Source: an uncultured Candidatus Binatia bacterium (GTDB lineage: Bacteria > Desulfobacterota > Binatia > Binatales > Binataceae). From it: a DNA stretch of 64,000 nucleotides. Numbering within the stretch: the stretch's first letter is position 1; each line of letters opens with the position of its first letter. Under the pieces are notes generated by a model that was not told the origin of the DNA, made no database searches, and was given only the letters and a program-made list of their open reading frames with translations. Where the stretch lies: assembly GCA_964429575.1 (NCBI GenBank), contig CAYSCX010000012.1, positions 2,195 through 66,194 of the forward strand, written 5' to 3'. Shown piece by piece: positions 8,381-13,866 of the stretch. Made by a program: the position numbers and the translations under genes.

Positions 8381-9512
8381 CTACTGCGCGGCGGCCGCCT
8401 CGGCGTCGCCCTTTCGCACCCCCATCAAGTACGCCTCGATGAACTGATCAATGTCGCCGTCGAGTACCGCGTCGGCATTGCCAACCGCGACGCCGGTGCG
8501 GTGGTCCTTCACCATGCGGTACGGCTGCAGCACGTAGGACCGGATCTGGCTGCCCCACGCGATGTCCTTCTTTTCCTTGGTGAACTTCTCGAGCTCCTCC
8601 TTTTTCTTCCGCTCCTCAAGTTCGAACAGCCGCGCGCGCAGGATTTTCATCGCCATCGCGCGGTTCTTGTGCTGCGAGCGCTCGTTCTGGCAGGTGACGA
8701 CGATGCCGCTCGGAATGTGAGTGAAGCGCACGGCGGAGTCGGTCTTGTTGACGTGCTGGCCGCCGGCGCCGCTCGCGCGGAACGTATCGATGCGCAGGTC
8801 CGCAGGGTTGATCACGACTTCGACCTTGTCGTCAATCGCGGGATAGACGAACACCGATGCGAACGACGTGTGGCGTCGCGCGTTCGCGTCGTAAGGCGAA
8901 ATCCTGACGAGCCGGTGGATGCCCGCCTCGGCGCGCAGATAGCCGTAGGCGTACTCGCCCTCGACCGTGAATGTCGCGTTTTTGATTCCGCCGCCATCGC
9001 CGGGTTGCAGGTCGGCCAAATCCACATTGTAGCGGTGACGCTCCGCCCAGCGGAGGTAAAGCCGCATAAGCATCTCCGCCCAGTCCTGCGCCTCGAGACC
9101 GCCGGCGCCGGGATGAATCGAGACGATCGCGTCGAGGCGGTCGTACTCGCCGGAAAGCATCACCTGAAGTTCACGCTGTTCAAGCTCGGTGCGCGCGGAA
9201 TCTAGAGCCGCTTCGGTTTCGCGCGCGGCTTCGCTGTCCTCCGCGCCGTCCTCCTCGGCCATCTGGAGGAACATGCGCGCTTCATCGAGCCGCTCGCGGA
9301 GCCGCCGGTAAGAGTCGAGCTGCTGCTTTATCTGGTCCTGTTCCTTGAGCACGGCCTGCGCCGCGTCGGGACGGTCCCAGAAGTCAGTCTTGGACGAGAG
9401 TTCGAGAAGTTGTTTCTGGCGCGCTTCTAATGAGGAGACGTCAAAGACGCCTCCCGAGCTTGTCGGCGCGCGAGTCGAGGTCGGTCAGTTGTTGTCGAAG
9501 GTCGGATAGCAT
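8381..9512 (-). CDS. prfB: peptide chain release factor 2 with programmed +1 ribosomal frameshift
   Basis: The ORF-track segment 8381..9352 is RF2 ([31 protein letters not shown] motif). Upstream in frame 0 lies ATG(9512)..[23 protein letters not shown] ending CTT-TGA-C at about 9446..9440, preceded by GGGAGG 3 nt upstream. The +1 shift reads ...[38 protein letters not shown], joining the ORF. Confidence 0.9.
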
Positions 9513-9564: not shown

Positions 9565-9594
9565 ATTATGACAGAAAACGCGCCGCTATTGAAC
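9565..9594 (-). promoter_or_regulatory. candidate sigma70-type promoter for prfB (GTTCAA -35, 18-nt spacer, TG-extended CATAAT -10)
   Basis: On the minus strand: gTTCAAtagcggcgcgttttctgtCATAATag, about 50 nt upstream of the prfB ATG. This is sequence inspection only. Confidence 0.3.
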
Positions 9595-9597
9595 TAC

Positions 9598-9619
9598 GCC
9601 TCCCGAGCTTACGGGAGGC
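9598..9619 (-). terminator. stem-loop (8-bp GC-rich stem, 6-nt loop) downstream of the TcmP gene; weak intrinsic terminator candidate
   Basis: gcctcccg-agctta-cgggaggc. No clear U-tract follows on the minus strand. Confidence 0.3.
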
Positions 9620-9670
9620 CGCGCTTCGGCGCGTCGTCATGAGGCTTACCGTATGGCGCATCCACGCTTG

Positions 9671-10813
9671 CTAGCGTCGCCACACAAGGAAGTTCCCTTT
9701 TCCACGCTGTGGCACTCGTTGTCTCTCCTGCAGTCCGCCAAGTTCAAGATTCCCCGCATCCGCCCACTCGCGAATCCATTTCTTGAGGTCGCGGTCCCAG
9801 ACAAGTTGATTGGTGAGCGCTAGAGACCACACTTCGTCGTATTCGACGCGGCCATGGCGCTGCAAAAGCTCTTGGACCGATCTTCGAGCGAAGCCGGTAT
9901 AACGTTGGCGCAGCGACTCATAGAAATGGGGGTCGTGGAGTTGGGAGGCTGCAAATAGCTCCGCTTGTTGCTGGCGGCTAATTCGCTTTCGCTGCCCTGC
10001 CTTTGCGCGCTGCGTCTCCATAACCTTCATCGCGCGCTCTTCCGCCTGCTTGAATACTTCGACGCCTTTCGGACTACGCGTGCAGTACAACAGATGAAAG
10101 GAGGTGCGGTTGACGTCAGGACGAAGGATTCGTGCAGCACATACCTGACTAAAGTGTCCAACCTGCTTGACCATGTCGCTGTACGATTGCAGAGCTGCGT
10201 CCTCTCGGTCATTTCCAGACAGAGAACCGAGGTTGATTCGAGATGTCGGTGAACCAAGTAAAGAAGGGAAACTCTGCTCCACAAAGCGCACGATCGAATT
10301 CGTCATGAAGCTGATCAGCACCTCGGACGGATCAATTCTCAGAAGCGGATCGATTGCCGTCAGGGGGAAACCACTCCAGCCCTTCGGATCAATAAAGATG
10401 AACGGAAAGTTGCCCGGTCCGCCTTTCCTAATGAAGTCGAGGATATCGGCGATTTCGCCCGTAAGCTCGCCGTTTACTGTTCGTATGTCGACATCAGCTA
10501 TCGAACTGGCGAATCTATGCAATTTCTGGAACGCAGCGAGATCCATTTCAAGAAAATAACACCGCAGCTTCAGTGCCCGTCCGTGAGATTTGAGCGACTC
10601 TCTAGCCAACCGTAGTTCGTTGATAGCAATTTGGAATGAGCTGTCGGCCAAGTTCTCTGAGCGCACATTCCACGGACCAGAGAAACAATCGACATATGTG
10701 ATTGCGGTGTAGCGAAACCCGATGATGTGCGCAAAACGACGCAGGCACTGACTGAGAATGAAGTGTTTTACCTCCGTCTGTTCGCGACCCTCGTACAGTG
10801 ATATGTCGTCCAA
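9671..10813 (-). CDS. three-Cys-motif partner protein (TcmP-like), function unknown
   Basis: 380-aa protein immediately downstream of, and co-oriented with, a DUF5131/Gp37-Gp68 three-Cys-motif gene. This is the pairing that defines the TcmP family. It contains DCFSGPW and FIDPKGW motifs reminiscent of Rossmann/methyltransferase-like folds. The region has markedly lower GC than its flanks. Confidence 0.65.
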   Translation of the reverse strand: MDDISLYEGREQTEVKHFILSQCLRRFAHIIGFRYTAITYVDCFSGPWNVRSENLADSSFQIAINELRLARESLKSHGRALKLRCYFLEMDLAAFQKLHRFASSIADVDIRTVNGELTGEIADILDFIRKGGPGNFPFIFIDPKGWSGFPLTAIDPLLRIDPSEVLISFMTNSIVRFVEQSFPSLLGSPTSRINLGSLSGNDREDAALQSYSDMVKQVGHFSQVCAARILRPDVNRTSFHLLYCTRSPKGVEVFKQAEERAMKVMETQRAKAGQRKRISRQQQAELFAASQLHDPHFYESLRQRYTGFARRSVQELLQRHGRVEYDEVWSLALTNQLVWDRDLKKWIREWADAGNLELGGLQERQRVPQRGKGNFLVWRR

Positions 10814-10849
10814 GATCCCACCCTTTGAGACGCTCTCAATTACATCGAT

Positions 10850-11620
10850 CTACGCGGACGGCGACGTGCGATCATTGGATTGCTGGCTGATGGCGGATGG
10901 CGAAGGGAATTCGCTGTAGATTCGGCCTTTCAGTTTCCGACCGGTCTCATGCTTCCGCGGGCCGCCCCATTGCTTGAAGAAAAATGGCACTCCGAACTCT
11001 CTACATTGACGGAAGATTGATATTACCCAATCTTGGTTCATTGGTCTTGCGCCAGGGCCGCTTTCTCCGCCAACGATCACCCAATCGATTGCAGTCAGAT
11101 CAAGCTTTCCAAGATCCTCTAACAAAGGTTCGATCGACAGGAATCTCACACGGGCCGGAGTTCGACGCAGCGCCTCAATTCTGCGTAGACCATACGATTT
11201 ATCTTCCACACTTACTCCGAACCAAACATGAGGCAGCATGGCGAGCCAATTGAGCGGGCCAGTTAGAAGTTCGTTCATCCGTTCGTGGCGCTTCGTCAGG
11301 ATTTGGTAGATATGCCAGTCGGCCTCCGCGATGACTTTTCCCACTCGGACGATGTAGTCTGTTGGAACACCCTCCTGAAAGAGATCGCTCATCGAATTTA
11401 CGAAGATCCGCCGACTCGCTTTCCAGCGCAGTGGTTCGGTTAGCTTTCCGGGAACAAGCCTTAAATCGAATCCGCTCTCGTAGGGGTGGCCCCGCACGCC
11501 CCGAAATCTCTCTGCGAAACGCTCGGCGTAGCAAAACTTACAACCCGGGCTGATCTTTACGCATCCCCGCACTGGGTTCCATGTTGCGTCCGTCCATTCG
11601 ATGGTCGAAGCAATGCTCAT
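10850..11620 (-). CDS. three-Cys-motif protein, phage Gp37/Gp68 family (DUF5131)
   Basis: STIEWTDATWNPVRGCVKISPGCKFCYAE, FVNSMSDLF, ILTKR, WFGVSVED, VRFLSIEPLL, IDWVIVGGESGPGARPM and FFFKQWGG are the hallmark motifs of PF07505. Lower GC. Confidence 0.8.
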   Translation of the reverse strand: MSIASTIEWTDATWNPVRGCVKISPGCKFCYAERFAERFRGVRGHPYESGFDLRLVPGKLTEPLRWKASRRIFVNSMSDLFQEGVPTDYIVRVGKVIAEADWHIYQILTKRHERMNELLTGPLNWLAMLPHVWFGVSVEDKSYGLRRIEALRRTPARVRFLSIEPLLEDLGKLDLTAIDWVIVGGESGPGARPMNQDWVISIFRQCREFGVPFFFKQWGGPRKHETGRKLKGRIYSEFPSPSAISQQSNDRTSPSA

Positions 11621-11698
11621 GTTCTTTTCCCCTCTCGGATCCTAGGCGAAGAAAGAGCGAATCTCAATGGTCCATCCATTTTGGCCTGCGCGCCAGCA

Positions 11699-13312
11699 TC
11701 AACCAGCGCCGTTTGCGGAGAGGATTTGCTCCACCACCGCCTCGAGCGGCTTTGGCCGGCGCGGCCAGCGCCAGCCGATCACCAAACCAATCGCAGTCAG
11801 CGCGAAACAGATCTCTGAAAAAAGATCACCGACCATCGTGTAGAGCGTGCGTGAGTTGCGCCACGACACGTCCTCGATCTGGGTGCCGCGCTTGAAGAGC
11901 GGAGTTGCGGCGGTAATCTCGCCAGTCGGTAGAATGATGGCGCTGATGCCCGTCTGCGCGTCGCGAATCATCGGCACCTTGTTTTCCGCCGAGCGCAGCG
12001 CCGCCATCGCGAGCGCCTGATAGGGCGCGGAACTCTCCCCGTACCACGCGTCGTTGGTGATGTTCACCAGCACGTTGGCGCCTGCTTTGACGGCTCGGCG
12101 GGTGAGATCGGGAAAGACGCTCTCATAGCAGATTAGAACGCCGAGCTTTGCGCCATGGACGTCGAAGACCGTCTGCCGCGTACCCGGAATCAAATCGCCG
12201 AATCCCTCGACCACGCGATTCACGAACATCCCTAGCAGCTTGCGCGCCGGTACGTATTCGCCAAATGGCACCAGTTGCATCTTGTCGTACCAGCCATTGA
12301 TCTCGCCGTCTGCCGAAACGACGTAAGCGCGATTGTAGAATCCCACCCGGCCGTCCTCGGCGCCCATCGCGGGAGCACCGAACAGAATCGGTTCGCCCGA
12401 TTGACGCGCGAGTCCAAGCAGCGCGGCGCGGTAGGAGGAGTAGTCCGCCATCTCCGCGGAATAGTGATCGTCCGGCTGGAACAGGAACGCCGCGGCAGCC
12501 TCGGGCCACACCACCAACTGCGCGCCCCGCCGTGCCGCGGCCGCAGTCTCTTCCTGATACACGCGGAAGCTCGACGCAAGGTGAGCTGGATCCCACTTGA
12601 TCGATTGCGCAATGTTGCCCTGGACCATCGCGACCTTCATGCTGCCCTCGACCGGTGCGGTTGCGAGTTGACGCTGACGCAGAGTCCCGAAGGCGAACAC
12701 AACGATCATGAGTGCGGTGAGAGCACCGAGGCTGGTCACTTGAAGGCGTCGCGTGCCGCGTCGGAACACAACCGTGTAGATCACTGCGTTGAAGAGCAGA
12801 ATGAGCGCGGAGACGCCGTAGACGCCGGTGAATTCGGAAAGTTGAATTACCTCAAGGTTGCGGTACGCCGTATAGCCGACCAGGTTCCACGGAAATCCGA
12901 TCGGGAAGAAGCTGCGCAGCCATTCGAACGCCGTCCACCCAAGCGGCATCGTGACGACCATCGGAATTCTGAGCCGGCGCGCGATGAACTCGCCGGACCA
13001 GATCGCGCCCATCGTGTTGATCGCCATCACCGCCGAAAGCAGGAGCATCGGCAGGATCGCAAATTCCACGCGGACGCCGGCGAAGTCGGTTAGAGGAATC
13101 ACGATCCAGTACATCGAGCCGACGTAACAGGCGAGGCCCTGGAGGTATGCGTAGCGCGCGACGCGTCCCAACGGTTCGCCTTCGATCGCGTAGAAGAGCG
13201 GAACGAACGCCGCCCATGCGAACAGGCTCAAGTCGAACTTCGGATACGCGAGGGCAAGCGCGAGGCCGCTCGCGACGACGAGGAGAGTGCGAGTGAGGGT
13301 GTTCTGCGACAT
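11699..13312 (-). CDS. lnt: apolipoprotein N-acyltransferase
   Basis: Multi-TM N-terminus plus a CN-hydrolase domain (AQLVVWPEAA, catalytic context). 537 aa from the internal ATG whose codon overlaps the upstream gene stop. The Arg-rich 52-aa extension in the ORF track was judged to be read-through of the upstream gene region. Confidence 0.8.
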   Translation of the reverse strand: MSQNTLTRTLLVVASGLALALAYPKFDLSLFAWAAFVPLFYAIEGEPLGRVARYAYLQGLACYVGSMYWIVIPLTDFAGVRVEFAILPMLLLSAVMAINTMGAIWSGEFIARRLRIPMVVTMPLGWTAFEWLRSFFPIGFPWNLVGYTAYRNLEVIQLSEFTGVYGVSALILLFNAVIYTVVFRRGTRRLQVTSLGALTALMIVVFAFGTLRQRQLATAPVEGSMKVAMVQGNIAQSIKWDPAHLASSFRVYQEETAAAARRGAQLVVWPEAAAAFLFQPDDHYSAEMADYSSYRAALLGLARQSGEPILFGAPAMGAEDGRVGFYNRAYVVSADGEINGWYDKMQLVPFGEYVPARKLLGMFVNRVVEGFGDLIPGTRQTVFDVHGAKLGVLICYESVFPDLTRRAVKAGANVLVNITNDAWYGESSAPYQALAMAALRSAENKVPMIRDAQTGISAIILPTGEITAATPLFKRGTQIEDVSWRNSRTLYTMVGDLFSEICFALTAIGLVIGWRWPRRPKPLEAVVEQILSANGAG

Positions 13313-13866
13313 CACTTGCGCACGCCCCCAAGTTCGCCCACCGGAAGTACTCCGGCGCACGGCGGGTGACCCTCGAAGCAGTCGTAAAGCTCGTCTGCGT
13401 CGCGCCAACCGCCGACGAGCGCGACGCAGCTTCGCGCGTCGAGGCGCAAATCGCCGGGGACGCGCCACTCGCGCTCGAACGTCCAGTCAACCGATCGCCG
13501 GCTCTGAAGATCGATGTTCACCGCCCGCCAGTGTTCGTCCGGGTTCAAGATCGCCGACGCTTCCTTCCACGGTAGATAAATCGCCGGGCGCGCGCCGTTG
13601 ATGAAAGCATAGCGTTTGTCGATCGCGATCCCGAACGGCTGGTAGCGTCGGCGGTTGCGCGGCTGGAGGAGCTCGGAGAGTTCGCCCAGCGGCATATCGA
13701 ACAGACACACCACGCTGCTACGGCCGCGAACCATGCGTCGCGAGCCGCGGATGACGCCGCCCTGGAGGATTGCGATGAGATTGTCGAGCGCGGAAGCGCG
13801 AGCCGACGCGCGCGTGAAATGCATCAGCATCGCGCCATCCGCGGCTCGTGCGGGCCGGGGTCTCAT
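13312..13866 (-). CDS. hypothetical 184-aa protein in the phoH-ybeY-X-lnt operon, with possible faint DarT/DUF4433-like motifs
   Basis: It is translationally coupled on both sides (overlaps the ybeY stop and the lnt start). It occupies the position usually held by corC/ybeX. It has HFT...LDNLIAIL, YQPF and FEREWRV motifs. No confident family assignment. Confidence 0.5.
   Translation of the reverse strand: MRPRPARAADGAMLMHFTRASARASALDNLIAILQGGVIRGSRRMVRGRSSVVCLFDMPLGELSELLQPRNRRRYQPFGIAIDKRYAFINGARPAIYLPWKEASAILNPDEHWRAVNIDLQSRRSVDWTFEREWRVPGDLRLDARSCVALVGGWRDADELYDCFEGHPPCAGVLPVGELGGVRK

Follow-up and report, generated by a model that had tools for sequence, protein, structure and literature searches.

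A horizontally acquired DUF5131–TcmP gene pair at a recurrent insertion hot spot between lnt and prfB in Candidatus Binataceae

Introduction

In an uncultured Candidatus Binatia bacterium from soil, two small genes of low guanine-plus-cytosine (GC) content stand between the housekeeping genes lnt and prfB, which raises the question of how they came to be there and what their products do together. They lie in a stretch of 64,000 nucleotides (nt; contig CAYSCX010000012.1 of assembly GCA_964429575.1, positions 2,195 to 66,194 of the forward strand), which as a whole is called the window below and whose own numbering is used unless another locus is named. One of the two genes encodes a member of the DUF5131 (phage Gp37/Gp68) family, and the other encodes TcmP, a "three-Cys-motif partner protein". 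An earlier inspection of the window without database searches, called here the sequence-only reading, had described the two genes as a conserved pairing with no assigned function. In full-text literature searches, we found no functional study of DUF5131 or TcmP but only annotation listings and PADLOC survey tables, and no characterised pathway includes the pair; the pairing as such, on the other hand, is already defined by a TIGRFAM model and listed by PADLOC as PDC-M30/M41, so the pair is not a discovery in kind. What we add here is a clean demonstration of the empty site, a hot spot in Binataceae with turnover of divergent alleles, a quantification of the pairing, and a structural model that gives TcmP a Dam/RlmJ-like methyltransferase fold, in which residues of catalytic type are conserved. 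On these grounds we also put forward a tentative proposal for what the pair does.

Results

The pair is an insertion between lnt and prfB

The features of the locus on which the argument depends are the following.

8381..9512, minus strand: prfB (release factor 2), the downstream flank; PCRF and RF-1 domains in the orthologue of the related locus L001
9563..9581, minus strand: right landmark GCGTTTTCTGTCATAATAG, equivalent to GCGTTTCGTGACATAATA, which is conserved upstream of prfB in relatives
9582..11662: inserted islet (approximate extent), about 2.08 kb between the two landmarks, from comparison with empty sites
9671..10813, minus strand: TcmP gene, 380 amino acids (aa), TTG start, beginning 36 nt past the DUF5131 stop codon
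10850..11620, minus strand: DUF5131/Gp37-Gp68 gene, 256 aa, ATG start
11663..11670, minus strand: left landmark CCATTGAG, equivalent to CCCATTAAT, which relatives with an empty site conserve at the lnt end or just past it
11699..13312, minus strand: lnt (apolipoprotein N-acyltransferase), the upstream flank; LNT_N and CN_hydrolase domains in the orthologue

Both genes are open reading frames (ORFs) exactly as the sequence-only reading had placed them. The segment from 9671 to 11620 has a GC content of 53.3%, the lowest of any 2-kb stretch in the window, against a background of 63.8% for 2-kb segments (standard deviation 1.6, minimum 59.4), which corresponds to z = -6.6; the low-GC islet suspected earlier is thus real, whereas the 68% that had been given for its flanks was too high (about 62–66%). 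Also, the GC content at third codon positions (GC3) is 58.8% in DUF5131 and in TcmP versus 73–88% in prfB, lnt, ybeY, phoH, and alaS. Since the lnt–DUF5131–TcmP–prfB junctions recur in six independent assemblies from other sequencing runs, with proteins 99–100% identical to those of the window, the islet is not an assembly artefact or a chimera.

The relatives of Lnt place the host in Candidatus Binataceae (Binatia), the best species representatives sharing 69–70% identity in Lnt. Among 71 Binataceae-like species loci, lnt is directly followed by prfB in 47, other inserts are present in 14, and no prfB is nearby in 10; TcmP was encoded in none of the 80 loci fetched, and a DUF5131 fragment was found in one. 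Because lnt and prfB are adjacent in 47 of the 71 species, none of which has TcmP, the pair represents an insertion of about 2.1 kb. In 20 lnt–prfB spacers compared from empty-site Binataceae, furthermore, CCCATTAAT and GCGTTTCGTGACATAATA are only 7–13 nt apart. The insertion, with its junctions, is shared by L001, whose Lnt is 96% identical to that of the window and whose TcmP and DUF5131 are 89% and 87% identical, respectively. The horizontal acquisition supposed in the sequence-only reading is thus borne out by the empty lnt–prfB sites of related species and by the deviant GC3, nor do related prfB–lnt neighbourhoods universally carry the pair at native GC; we conclude with high confidence that the pair is a horizontally acquired, self-contained cassette of two genes.

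It had also been remarked that no tRNA, integrase, or direct repeats flank the islet, and we found none. A tRNA was absent from the whole 64-kb window, in which an Rfam scan gave no match; no integrase, transposase, or recombinase was present among the ORFs of the window, and no direct or inverted repeats flank the islet. A classical mobile element (prophage, integron cassette, transposon, or tRNA-targeting island) was accordingly rejected for lack of a recombinase, a tRNA or attachment (att) site, and flanking repeats.

The lnt–prfB gap is a hot spot with allelic turnover

Pairs of DUF5131 and TcmP are found at lnt–prfB in other lineages as well. In L176 an intact pair stands right after lnt, as it does in L177, and in L175 the pair comes with MazEF and precedes the promoter landmarks. 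The locus L051, which is related to L176, carries at 9627–9950 a decayed DUF5131 right after lnt but without TcmP, in which the first ~62 codons are intact and an internal fragment is then inverted. The TcmPs of the window, L175, L176, and L177 are 46–59% identical to one another, which is no closer than to metagenomic TcmPs elsewhere; the junctions differ among the three lineages compared (window/L001, L175, and L176/L051), and all four copies have ~51–53% GC in hosts of 60–65% GC. The divergence of TcmP, the differing junctions, and the low GC point to at least three independent arrivals or allele replacements, and one ancient, vertically inherited insertion was for the same reasons rejected as the sole explanation. 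In Binataceae, the lnt–prfB gap is a hot spot that receives inserts repeatedly and at which alleles turn over.

Inserts in this gap are listed for L034, L037, L044, L045, L049, L052, L055, L056, L059, L065, L080, L081, and L175. Their contents include, in L052, a ~498-aa ATPase that matches the PADLOC candidate PDC-M28C and resembles an ATPase ORF of L055, in L044, a cyclase-AAA-TPR protein recognised by Pfam and adjoining a transposase-like ORF recognised by eye only, in L034, an HD-domain protein, and in L175, a MazEF pair with Bac_luciferase and hydrolase genes (by Pfam); luciferase-like monooxygenase or hydrolase-like ORFs in L045, L049, and L065 were identified by eye against the Pfam-annotated genes of L175.

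DUF5131 and TcmP form an obligate pair

A metagenome scan by TcmP alignment gave 80 loci, to which three others were added. In 78 of these 83 loci DUF5131 is directly upstream of TcmP on the same strand, the fraction being 62 of 65 when only loci with room for it are counted; mostly, DUF5131 starts ~806 nt ahead of TcmP, and the stop and start codons overlap by 4 nt in both gene-called loci checked. DUF5131 and TcmP thus make up an obligate unit with coupled translation. The TcmP family comprises ~3,650 cluster representatives at 50% identity; its members have a constant length of 380–400 aa, and no fusions occur among the best 150. In all of the 37 loci of at least 6 kb, the GC content of the pair is below that of the rest of the locus (median difference -6.3 points). 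When the surroundings of the pair were compared over 26 long loci, no third gene recurred, and the clusters obtained reflected close genomes or genes of type I restriction-modification (R-M) systems. Decayed copies of DUF5131 occur elsewhere as well; the gene is split or frameshifted in L091 and frameshifted in a Pseudomonas aeruginosa plasmid.

DUF5131 is a putative radical SAM protein

The assignment of the upstream gene to the Gp37/Gp68 three-Cys family holds, with PF07505 (DUF5131) matching at 320.6 bits (cut-off 28.9, E = 8.3e-96) over profile positions 2–243 of 243, but the spacing of seven residues after the first Cys given in the sequence-only reading is in fact six. The triad C20-x6-C27-x2-C30 is invariant across 41 homologues, as is G184-G185-E186 within V183-G-G-E-S-G188, and the WNPVRGC motif falls on invariant columns of the family alignment. 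DUF5131 is ~70% identical across phyla, compared with ~50% for TcmP. The protein also matches PHROG 2045, to which no function is assigned there, and TIGR04471 ("radical SAM mobile pair protein A"; SAM, S-adenosylmethionine) at 5.7e-21 and 75 bits, below the 355-bit cut-off of that model. In RadicalSAM.org, DUF5131 constitutes the SFLD-derived radical SAM subgroup Megacluster-5-2, and spore photoproduct lyase is 5-3 of the same megacluster (PMC9477430). From its sequence, DUF5131 is a probable member of the radical SAM superfamily with three Cys and a GGE motif, which would be expected to bind SAM.

TcmP is predicted to have an RlmJ-like methyltransferase fold

TcmP matches TIGR04474 ("three-Cys-motif partner protein") at 99.5 bits versus a cut-off of 53 over residues 11–259; in profile searches with hidden Markov models (HMMs), both proteins thus score above the cut-off of the family suspected. 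Its motifs DCFSGPW and FIDPKGW, from which a TcmP-like protein had been recognised, are present and located on invariant columns of the family alignment. We then predicted the structure of TcmP with a predicted local distance difference test score of 87.7 and a predicted template-modelling (TM) score of 0.88, and Foldseek with this model gave 69 PDB matches at E ≤ 1e-3; the best 50 of the 69 are all SAM-dependent transferases and nearly all methyltransferases, and RlmJ has the highest target-normalised TM-score (0.57) among the matches listed. The hint of a Rossmann/methyltransferase-like fold was therefore well founded. In the model, residues ~1–245 adopt a class-I SAM-methyltransferase fold closest to RlmJ with an RlmJ-type N-terminal motif X, followed by a long helix (248–281) and a winged-helix-like domain (~296–378), the last 85 residues showing the order helix-strand-helix-helix-strand-strand. 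This C-terminal domain is the most variable region of TcmP, and Pfam GMT-wHTH matches five of 69 family members (best E 4e-5).

Over 69 TcmP homologues with identity down to 30%, the residues Y7, K16, H17, D42-x-F-x-G46-P-W48, E89, and D142-P143-x-G145-W146 are invariant or nearly so and occupy the positions of motifs X, I, II, and IV. Motif IV reads D142-P143-K-G145-W146 in the window and D-P-T-G-W in the family consensus, D, P, and G being present in all 69 sequences and W in 62. When compared by eye, these residues correspond to Y4, K18, H19, motif I, E118, and D164-P165 of RlmJ, in which Y4, K18, and D164 take part in catalysis and SAM is bound by H19 and E118 (PMC3814359). Judged from the model, TcmP with high confidence has a class-I SAM-methyltransferase fold like that of RlmJ, ends in a winged helix, and would bind SAM. 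Membership of the RlmJ family itself could nonetheless not be demonstrated for TcmP, which shows no sequence-level homology to RlmJ and has a different motif IV.

The pair keeps company with restriction-modification, prophage, and conjugative genes

Of 86 loci, 13 have type I R-M genes next to the pair, and TcmP is immediately followed by the start of hsdM in 10 of 68 loci with room for it; L102 and L130 have the full order hsdR-hsdS-(unknown)-DUF5131-TcmP-hsdM. In several cassettes, furthermore, TcmP is joined at its 3' end to a short 5' fragment of hsdM (~30–70 codons), in some cases at a great distance from any full hsdM (L093 at 1881–2024 and from 4025, L103, L106, L116, L163, and L167), and in L093 a 117-nt direct repeat of this fragment is located on both sides of the cassette. 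Such a fragment at the cassette end suggests that the cassette moves with a piece of its former downstream neighbour, and entry was perhaps by homology-assisted or Campbell-type insertion. When repeats at the cassette ends or att-like sites were sought across 57 loci, the conserved flanks were a short 5' leader and hsdM fragments but not termini, and the flank-to-flank similarity seen in seven of 52 loci is explained by the hsdM fragments.

The 345-aa protein between hsdS and DUF5131 in the type I R-M operon of L102 (6007–7041) has no match in Pfam or PADLOC and might, in that subgroup, be embedded as a further component.

Other neighbours of the pair include DpdB/DndB-like (L117), HNH (L150), two TIR (L110), and HSDR_N-like (L098) proteins, and toxin-antitoxin-like ORFs were seen by eye near some pairs. 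In Gordonia phage Easley (L172, 29182–31049) the pair lies between the integrase and the immunity repressor, and in a Pseudochrobactrum prophage (L174, plasmid 90066–91970) it is beside a CI/LexA repressor and a restriction endonuclease; the spot beside the immunity repressor is the usual place for defence cargo expressed from a prophage. The two genes in both of these prophages are convergent with overlapping 3' ends and not tandem. DUF5131 occurs in 181 phage records, among which TcmP is alongside in only five Gordonia phage records, and the phage DUF5131 genes are surrounded by those for replication and recombination (AAA ATPases, exonucleases, and RecE/RecT-type proteins). TcmP is also encoded on 24 plasmids, most of them conjugative or mobilisable, and on a P. 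aeruginosa conjugative plasmid the pair adjoins transfer genes (TraD and proteins of integrative and conjugative elements, ICEs).

In L173 (conjugative P. aeruginosa plasmid NZ_CP124633.1, 25.7–24.8 kb), a DEAD/DEAH helicase and a DUF6094 protein adjoin two TcmP paralogues and a frameshifted DUF5131. In Sinorhizobium meliloti, the neighbour of TcmP on pSymA is Hna, a helicase-type defence protein; hna is a validated defence gene, and both genes rise ~2-fold in nolR+ cells (PMC12445080). TcmP may be associated with helicases.

Junction details and neighbouring genes

GCGTTTCGTGACATAATA resembles an extended -10 element (TGnCATAAT), and the right landmark is probably the promoter element of prfB, now apart from the left landmark. 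A promoter-like TTGAGA-17-TAGGAT at 11667..11639, whose -35-like TTGAGA overlaps the left landmark, is the sole match in the region; such a match upstream of DUF5131 occurs at chance frequency (one found versus 1.1 expected) and is reported as a consensus match only. The right end of the islet contains one more feature.

9596..9639, minus strand: fossil of the 5' coding region of prfB (31 nt), TGACGA-CGCGCCGAA, a 14-nt insert, and AAGCTCGGGAGGCGT

A gapped alignment of this fossil to prfB of L011, L022, and L025 gave a score of 39, which none of 2000 shuffles reached. The fossil is closer to prfB of other Binataceae than to that of the window and is kept in L001, and its last 15 nt are an exact repeat of the segment at 9447–9461, which resembles a Shine-Dalgarno (SD) sequence and is just 5' of the prfB frameshift site. 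It may have arisen as templated filler DNA or may be the relic of a former site beside another prfB. The 14-nt insert gives rise to an 8-bp GC hairpin at 9598–9619; because the hairpin region after TcmP is no more stable than shuffled sequence (z -0.25), we do not claim it as a terminator.

The prfB gene has a programmed +1 frameshift, with the start codon at 9512, an SD-like GGGAGG, and the shift site CTT TGA C at 9440–9446; the frameshift cassette, AAGCTCGGGAGGCGTCTTTGAC, is nearly invariant among the Binataceae loci compared. On the other side, between ybeY and lnt, an ORF of 184 aa (13312–13866, minus strand) with no Pfam family occupies the same position in almost all Binataceae-like loci examined (55–65% identity) and is absent from Geobacter loci; it is a gene specific to this lineage amid housekeeping genes.

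Discussion

A tentative proposal for the function of the pair

Starting from the acquisition, obligate pairing, folds, conserved residues, and genomic company described above, we tentatively propose that the pair is a two-enzyme module for the modification of nucleic acid, probably DNA, in the conflict between hosts and phages or other mobile elements. The two proteins would be co-produced and share a single nucleic-acid substrate, which would most probably be DNA. TcmP would bind SAM, dock on the nucleic acid through its winged helix, and present a flipped purine in a Dam/RlmJ-type pocket composed of Y7, K16-H17, E89, and D142-P-x-G-W146. DUF5131 would hold a [4Fe-4S] cluster on C20, C27, and C30, cleave a second SAM to the 5'-deoxyadenosyl radical, and perform C–H chemistry either on the same nucleotide or on a methyl group delivered by TcmP. 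The product might be an unusual covalent base modification that marks or protects the DNA of the carrier or disables incoming phage DNA, and chromosomes, prophages, and conjugative plasmids would hence retain the cassette as a module for conflict.

The modification or defence flavour ascribed to the pair in the sequence-only reading is consistent with its counterparts among the PADLOC candidates and with its occurrence elsewhere within operons of type I R-M systems and in the immunity regions of prophages. The profiles PDC-M41B and PDC-M30B match DUF5131 of the window at about 1e-101 (2.8e-102 and 4.3e-101), while PDC-M30A matches TcmP weakly (7.6e-9, residues 11–187, about half of its length) and PDC-M41A does so at 0.004. 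Since PDC-M30A and M41A match plasmid TcmPs annotated by PGAP/NCBI, as well as gp39 of Gordonia phage Easley, PDC-M30 and PDC-M41 are TcmP plus DUF5131 pairs, and from these profile matches the pair of the window probably belongs to a divergent branch of these candidates. The PDC set (Payne et al., bioRxiv 10.1101/2024.01.29.577857) derives from "guilt by embedding", the surrounding systems being BREX, DISARM, and type I R-M. With PDC-M30/M41 our pair shares DUF5131 as component B and a TcmP-family protein as component A, and embedding in type I R-M was recovered here independently; it differs in that its TcmP matches the A profiles weakly and in that it forms a solitary islet among housekeeping genes.

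Several observations weigh against the proposal and should be set out together. With respect to DUF5131, Radical_SAM PF04055 gave no match in the Pfam scan at E ≤ 0.1, in which PF07505 was the sole hit, and the CX6CX2C spacing departs from the canonical CX3CX2C. The protein is also found without TcmP in about 176 of the 181 phage genomes and so does not strictly need its partner. With respect to TcmP, no Pfam family, and hence no methyltransferase family, was above threshold at E ≤ 0.1, and no PDB chain matched it by HMM; PDB-chain searches with both proteins and the family profiles gave nothing meaningful but troponin and an epimerase at E > 0.2. When the TcmP profiles (47 and 69 sequences) were compared with Escherichia coli RlmJ by hhalign, the probability was <1%, so that the likeness to RlmJ rests on structure and on motif positions that were matched by eye from sequence and not by structural alignment. 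Motif IV is D-P-x-G-W, not (D/N/S)-P-P-(Y/F/W), and methyl transfer by TcmP is therefore not assured. Most of the proteins structurally related to TcmP methylate RNA (RlmJ, Trm1, TYW4, and RsmD), which favours RNA as the substrate. Finally, many pairs, including that of the window, are located among housekeeping genes and not in defence islands, and the 145 PDC systems were termed untested by their authors (bioRxiv 10.1101/2024.01.29.577857).

A bolder form of the proposal is that the pair installs in DNA a C–H-functionalised (hypermodified) purine, previously undescribed, as an immune or counter-immune mark, that the solitary DUF5131 in ~180 phage genomes is the viral version, and that alleles are swapped at the Binataceae hot spot under diversifying selection. 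We regard this form as possible, though doubtful.

Alternative explanations

Compact two-gene islets that are isolated between housekeeping genes and have no recombinase genes might alternatively be selfish. An R-M-like or toxin–antidote addiction module, spreading without an integrase like type II R-M, would consist of DUF5131 damaging unmarked nucleic acid and TcmP protecting the host by methylation; the tight translational coupling of the genes, the recurrence of different alleles at one hot spot, the methyltransferase-like catalytic positions kept in TcmP, and the decay of one partner (L051, and the frameshifted DUF5131 in L091 and the P. aeruginosa plasmid) would all be consistent with it. 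A self-toxic effector is nonetheless hard to square with the solitary DUF5131 of the phages. DUF5131 is, furthermore, well conserved across phyla, unlike the fast-evolving restriction effectors; TcmP has no hypervariable target-recognition region, its variability being spread over the C-terminal domain; and no nuclease domain was detected in either protein with Pfam, NCBIfam, PADLOC, and PHROG profiles. Addiction thus appears unlikely to us.

An RNA-modification module acting on rRNA or tRNA is comparably improbable. It would alter translation, either by conferring resistance to ribosome-targeting toxins or antibiotics or by reprogramming during phage infection. RlmJ, Trm1, and RsmD methylate RNA, and RlmN/Cfr, MiaB, and TYW1 carry out radical SAM chemistry on RNA, with Cfr as a precedent for a mobile radical SAM methylase of RNA. 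RNA methyltransferases are the structural neighbours of TcmP, eight of 69 TcmPs weakly match the RsmD family PF03602, and the strong conservation of both proteins across phyla would fit an invariant substrate such as rRNA or tRNA. The neighbourhood, however, points to DNA: the pair is embedded as hsdS-[pair]-hsdM and has DpdB/DndB-like and HNH neighbours, and phage DUF5131 is found among replication and recombination genes. A C-terminal winged helix is typical of DNA binders, and even the active site of RlmJ is more like those of DNA N6-methyladenine (m6A) methyltransferases (PMC3814359).

Still less probable is a pair for DNA repair or de-modification with a fitness or anti-defence role, in which DUF5131 would act like spore photoproduct lyase and TcmP would be the subunit binding the lesion or DNA. 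This idea draws on Megacluster-5-2 being beside 5-3 in RadicalSAM.org, on DUF5131 being common in phages next to genes for AAA ATPases, exonucleases, and RecE/RecT-type proteins, and on the TraD/ICE transfer genes adjoining the pair of the P. aeruginosa conjugative plasmid; anti-restriction functions are often encoded near transfer regions. The SAM- and catalytic-type residues of TcmP, on the other hand, suggest group transfer rather than binding alone, and a place within R-M operons and in the immunity regions of prophages would be more usual for defence cargo. A functionless passenger, that is, the decaying remnant of a past insertion in the window genome, is very improbable: although decayed copies exist (L051 with its inverted fragment, the split DUF5131 of L091, and the frameshifted copy on the P. 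aeruginosa plasmid) and the insertion splits two conserved landmarks upstream of prfB, both ORFs of the window are intact with every invariant family residue kept, L001, whose Lnt is 96% identical, retains both genes intact at 87–89% protein identity, and copies with 99–100% identical proteins occur in six population samples.

Comparison with known systems

The proposed modification module differs in several respects from the systems it resembles. RlmJ, which produces m6A2030 in 23S rRNA, and the Dam/M.TaqI-type N6-adenine DNA methyltransferases have no detectable sequence relationship with TcmP, whose motif IV is D-P-x-G-W versus DPPY; TcmP also has the extra long helix, the winged helix, and a partner of the radical SAM type, whereas RlmJ has no such partner. 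Spore photoproduct lyase and RlmN/Cfr, whose substrates are nucleic acids, and the antiviral viperins differ from DUF5131, which has the C-x6-C-x2-C arrangement with no PF04055 match, is much smaller (~250 aa), and has a methyltransferase-like partner in cells. The radical SAM mobile pair A/B (TIGR04471/TIGR04470) is likewise a mobile two-gene unit with a DUF5131-like radical SAM protein, but the partner in the window is a TcmP methyltransferase fold and not a second radical SAM protein. With type I/II R-M and Dnd/Dpd systems, the pair has in common a mobile, patchy distribution and a SAM-dependent methyltransferase-like component, and it is physically linked to them in some loci, where it is embedded in R-M operons or adjoins DpdB/DndB-like genes; it differs from them as a conserved pair without a recognisable endonuclease, specificity subunit, DndACDE, or DpdA-type component.

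Conclusion

In conclusion, we have identified a DUF5131–TcmP cassette that was acquired between lnt and prfB of an uncultured Binataceae bacterium, an instance that is mainly natural-history evidence and not the best entry point to the function of DUF5131; homologues in Gordonia phage Easley, on P. aeruginosa plasmids, and on pSymA of S. meliloti will be easier for experiments. At stake is a whole radical SAM subgroup with a partner family of ~3,650 clusters and a presence in ~180 sequenced phages. The predicted fold, the coupling of the two genes, and their company of R-M, prophage, and conjugative genes make testable hypotheses out of an annotation curiosity, namely that both proteins bind SAM, that a purine in DNA is modified, and that the pair confers resistance to phages or counters restriction. 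If these are true, a new radical chemistry would join the repertoire of DNA modification and bacterial immunity.

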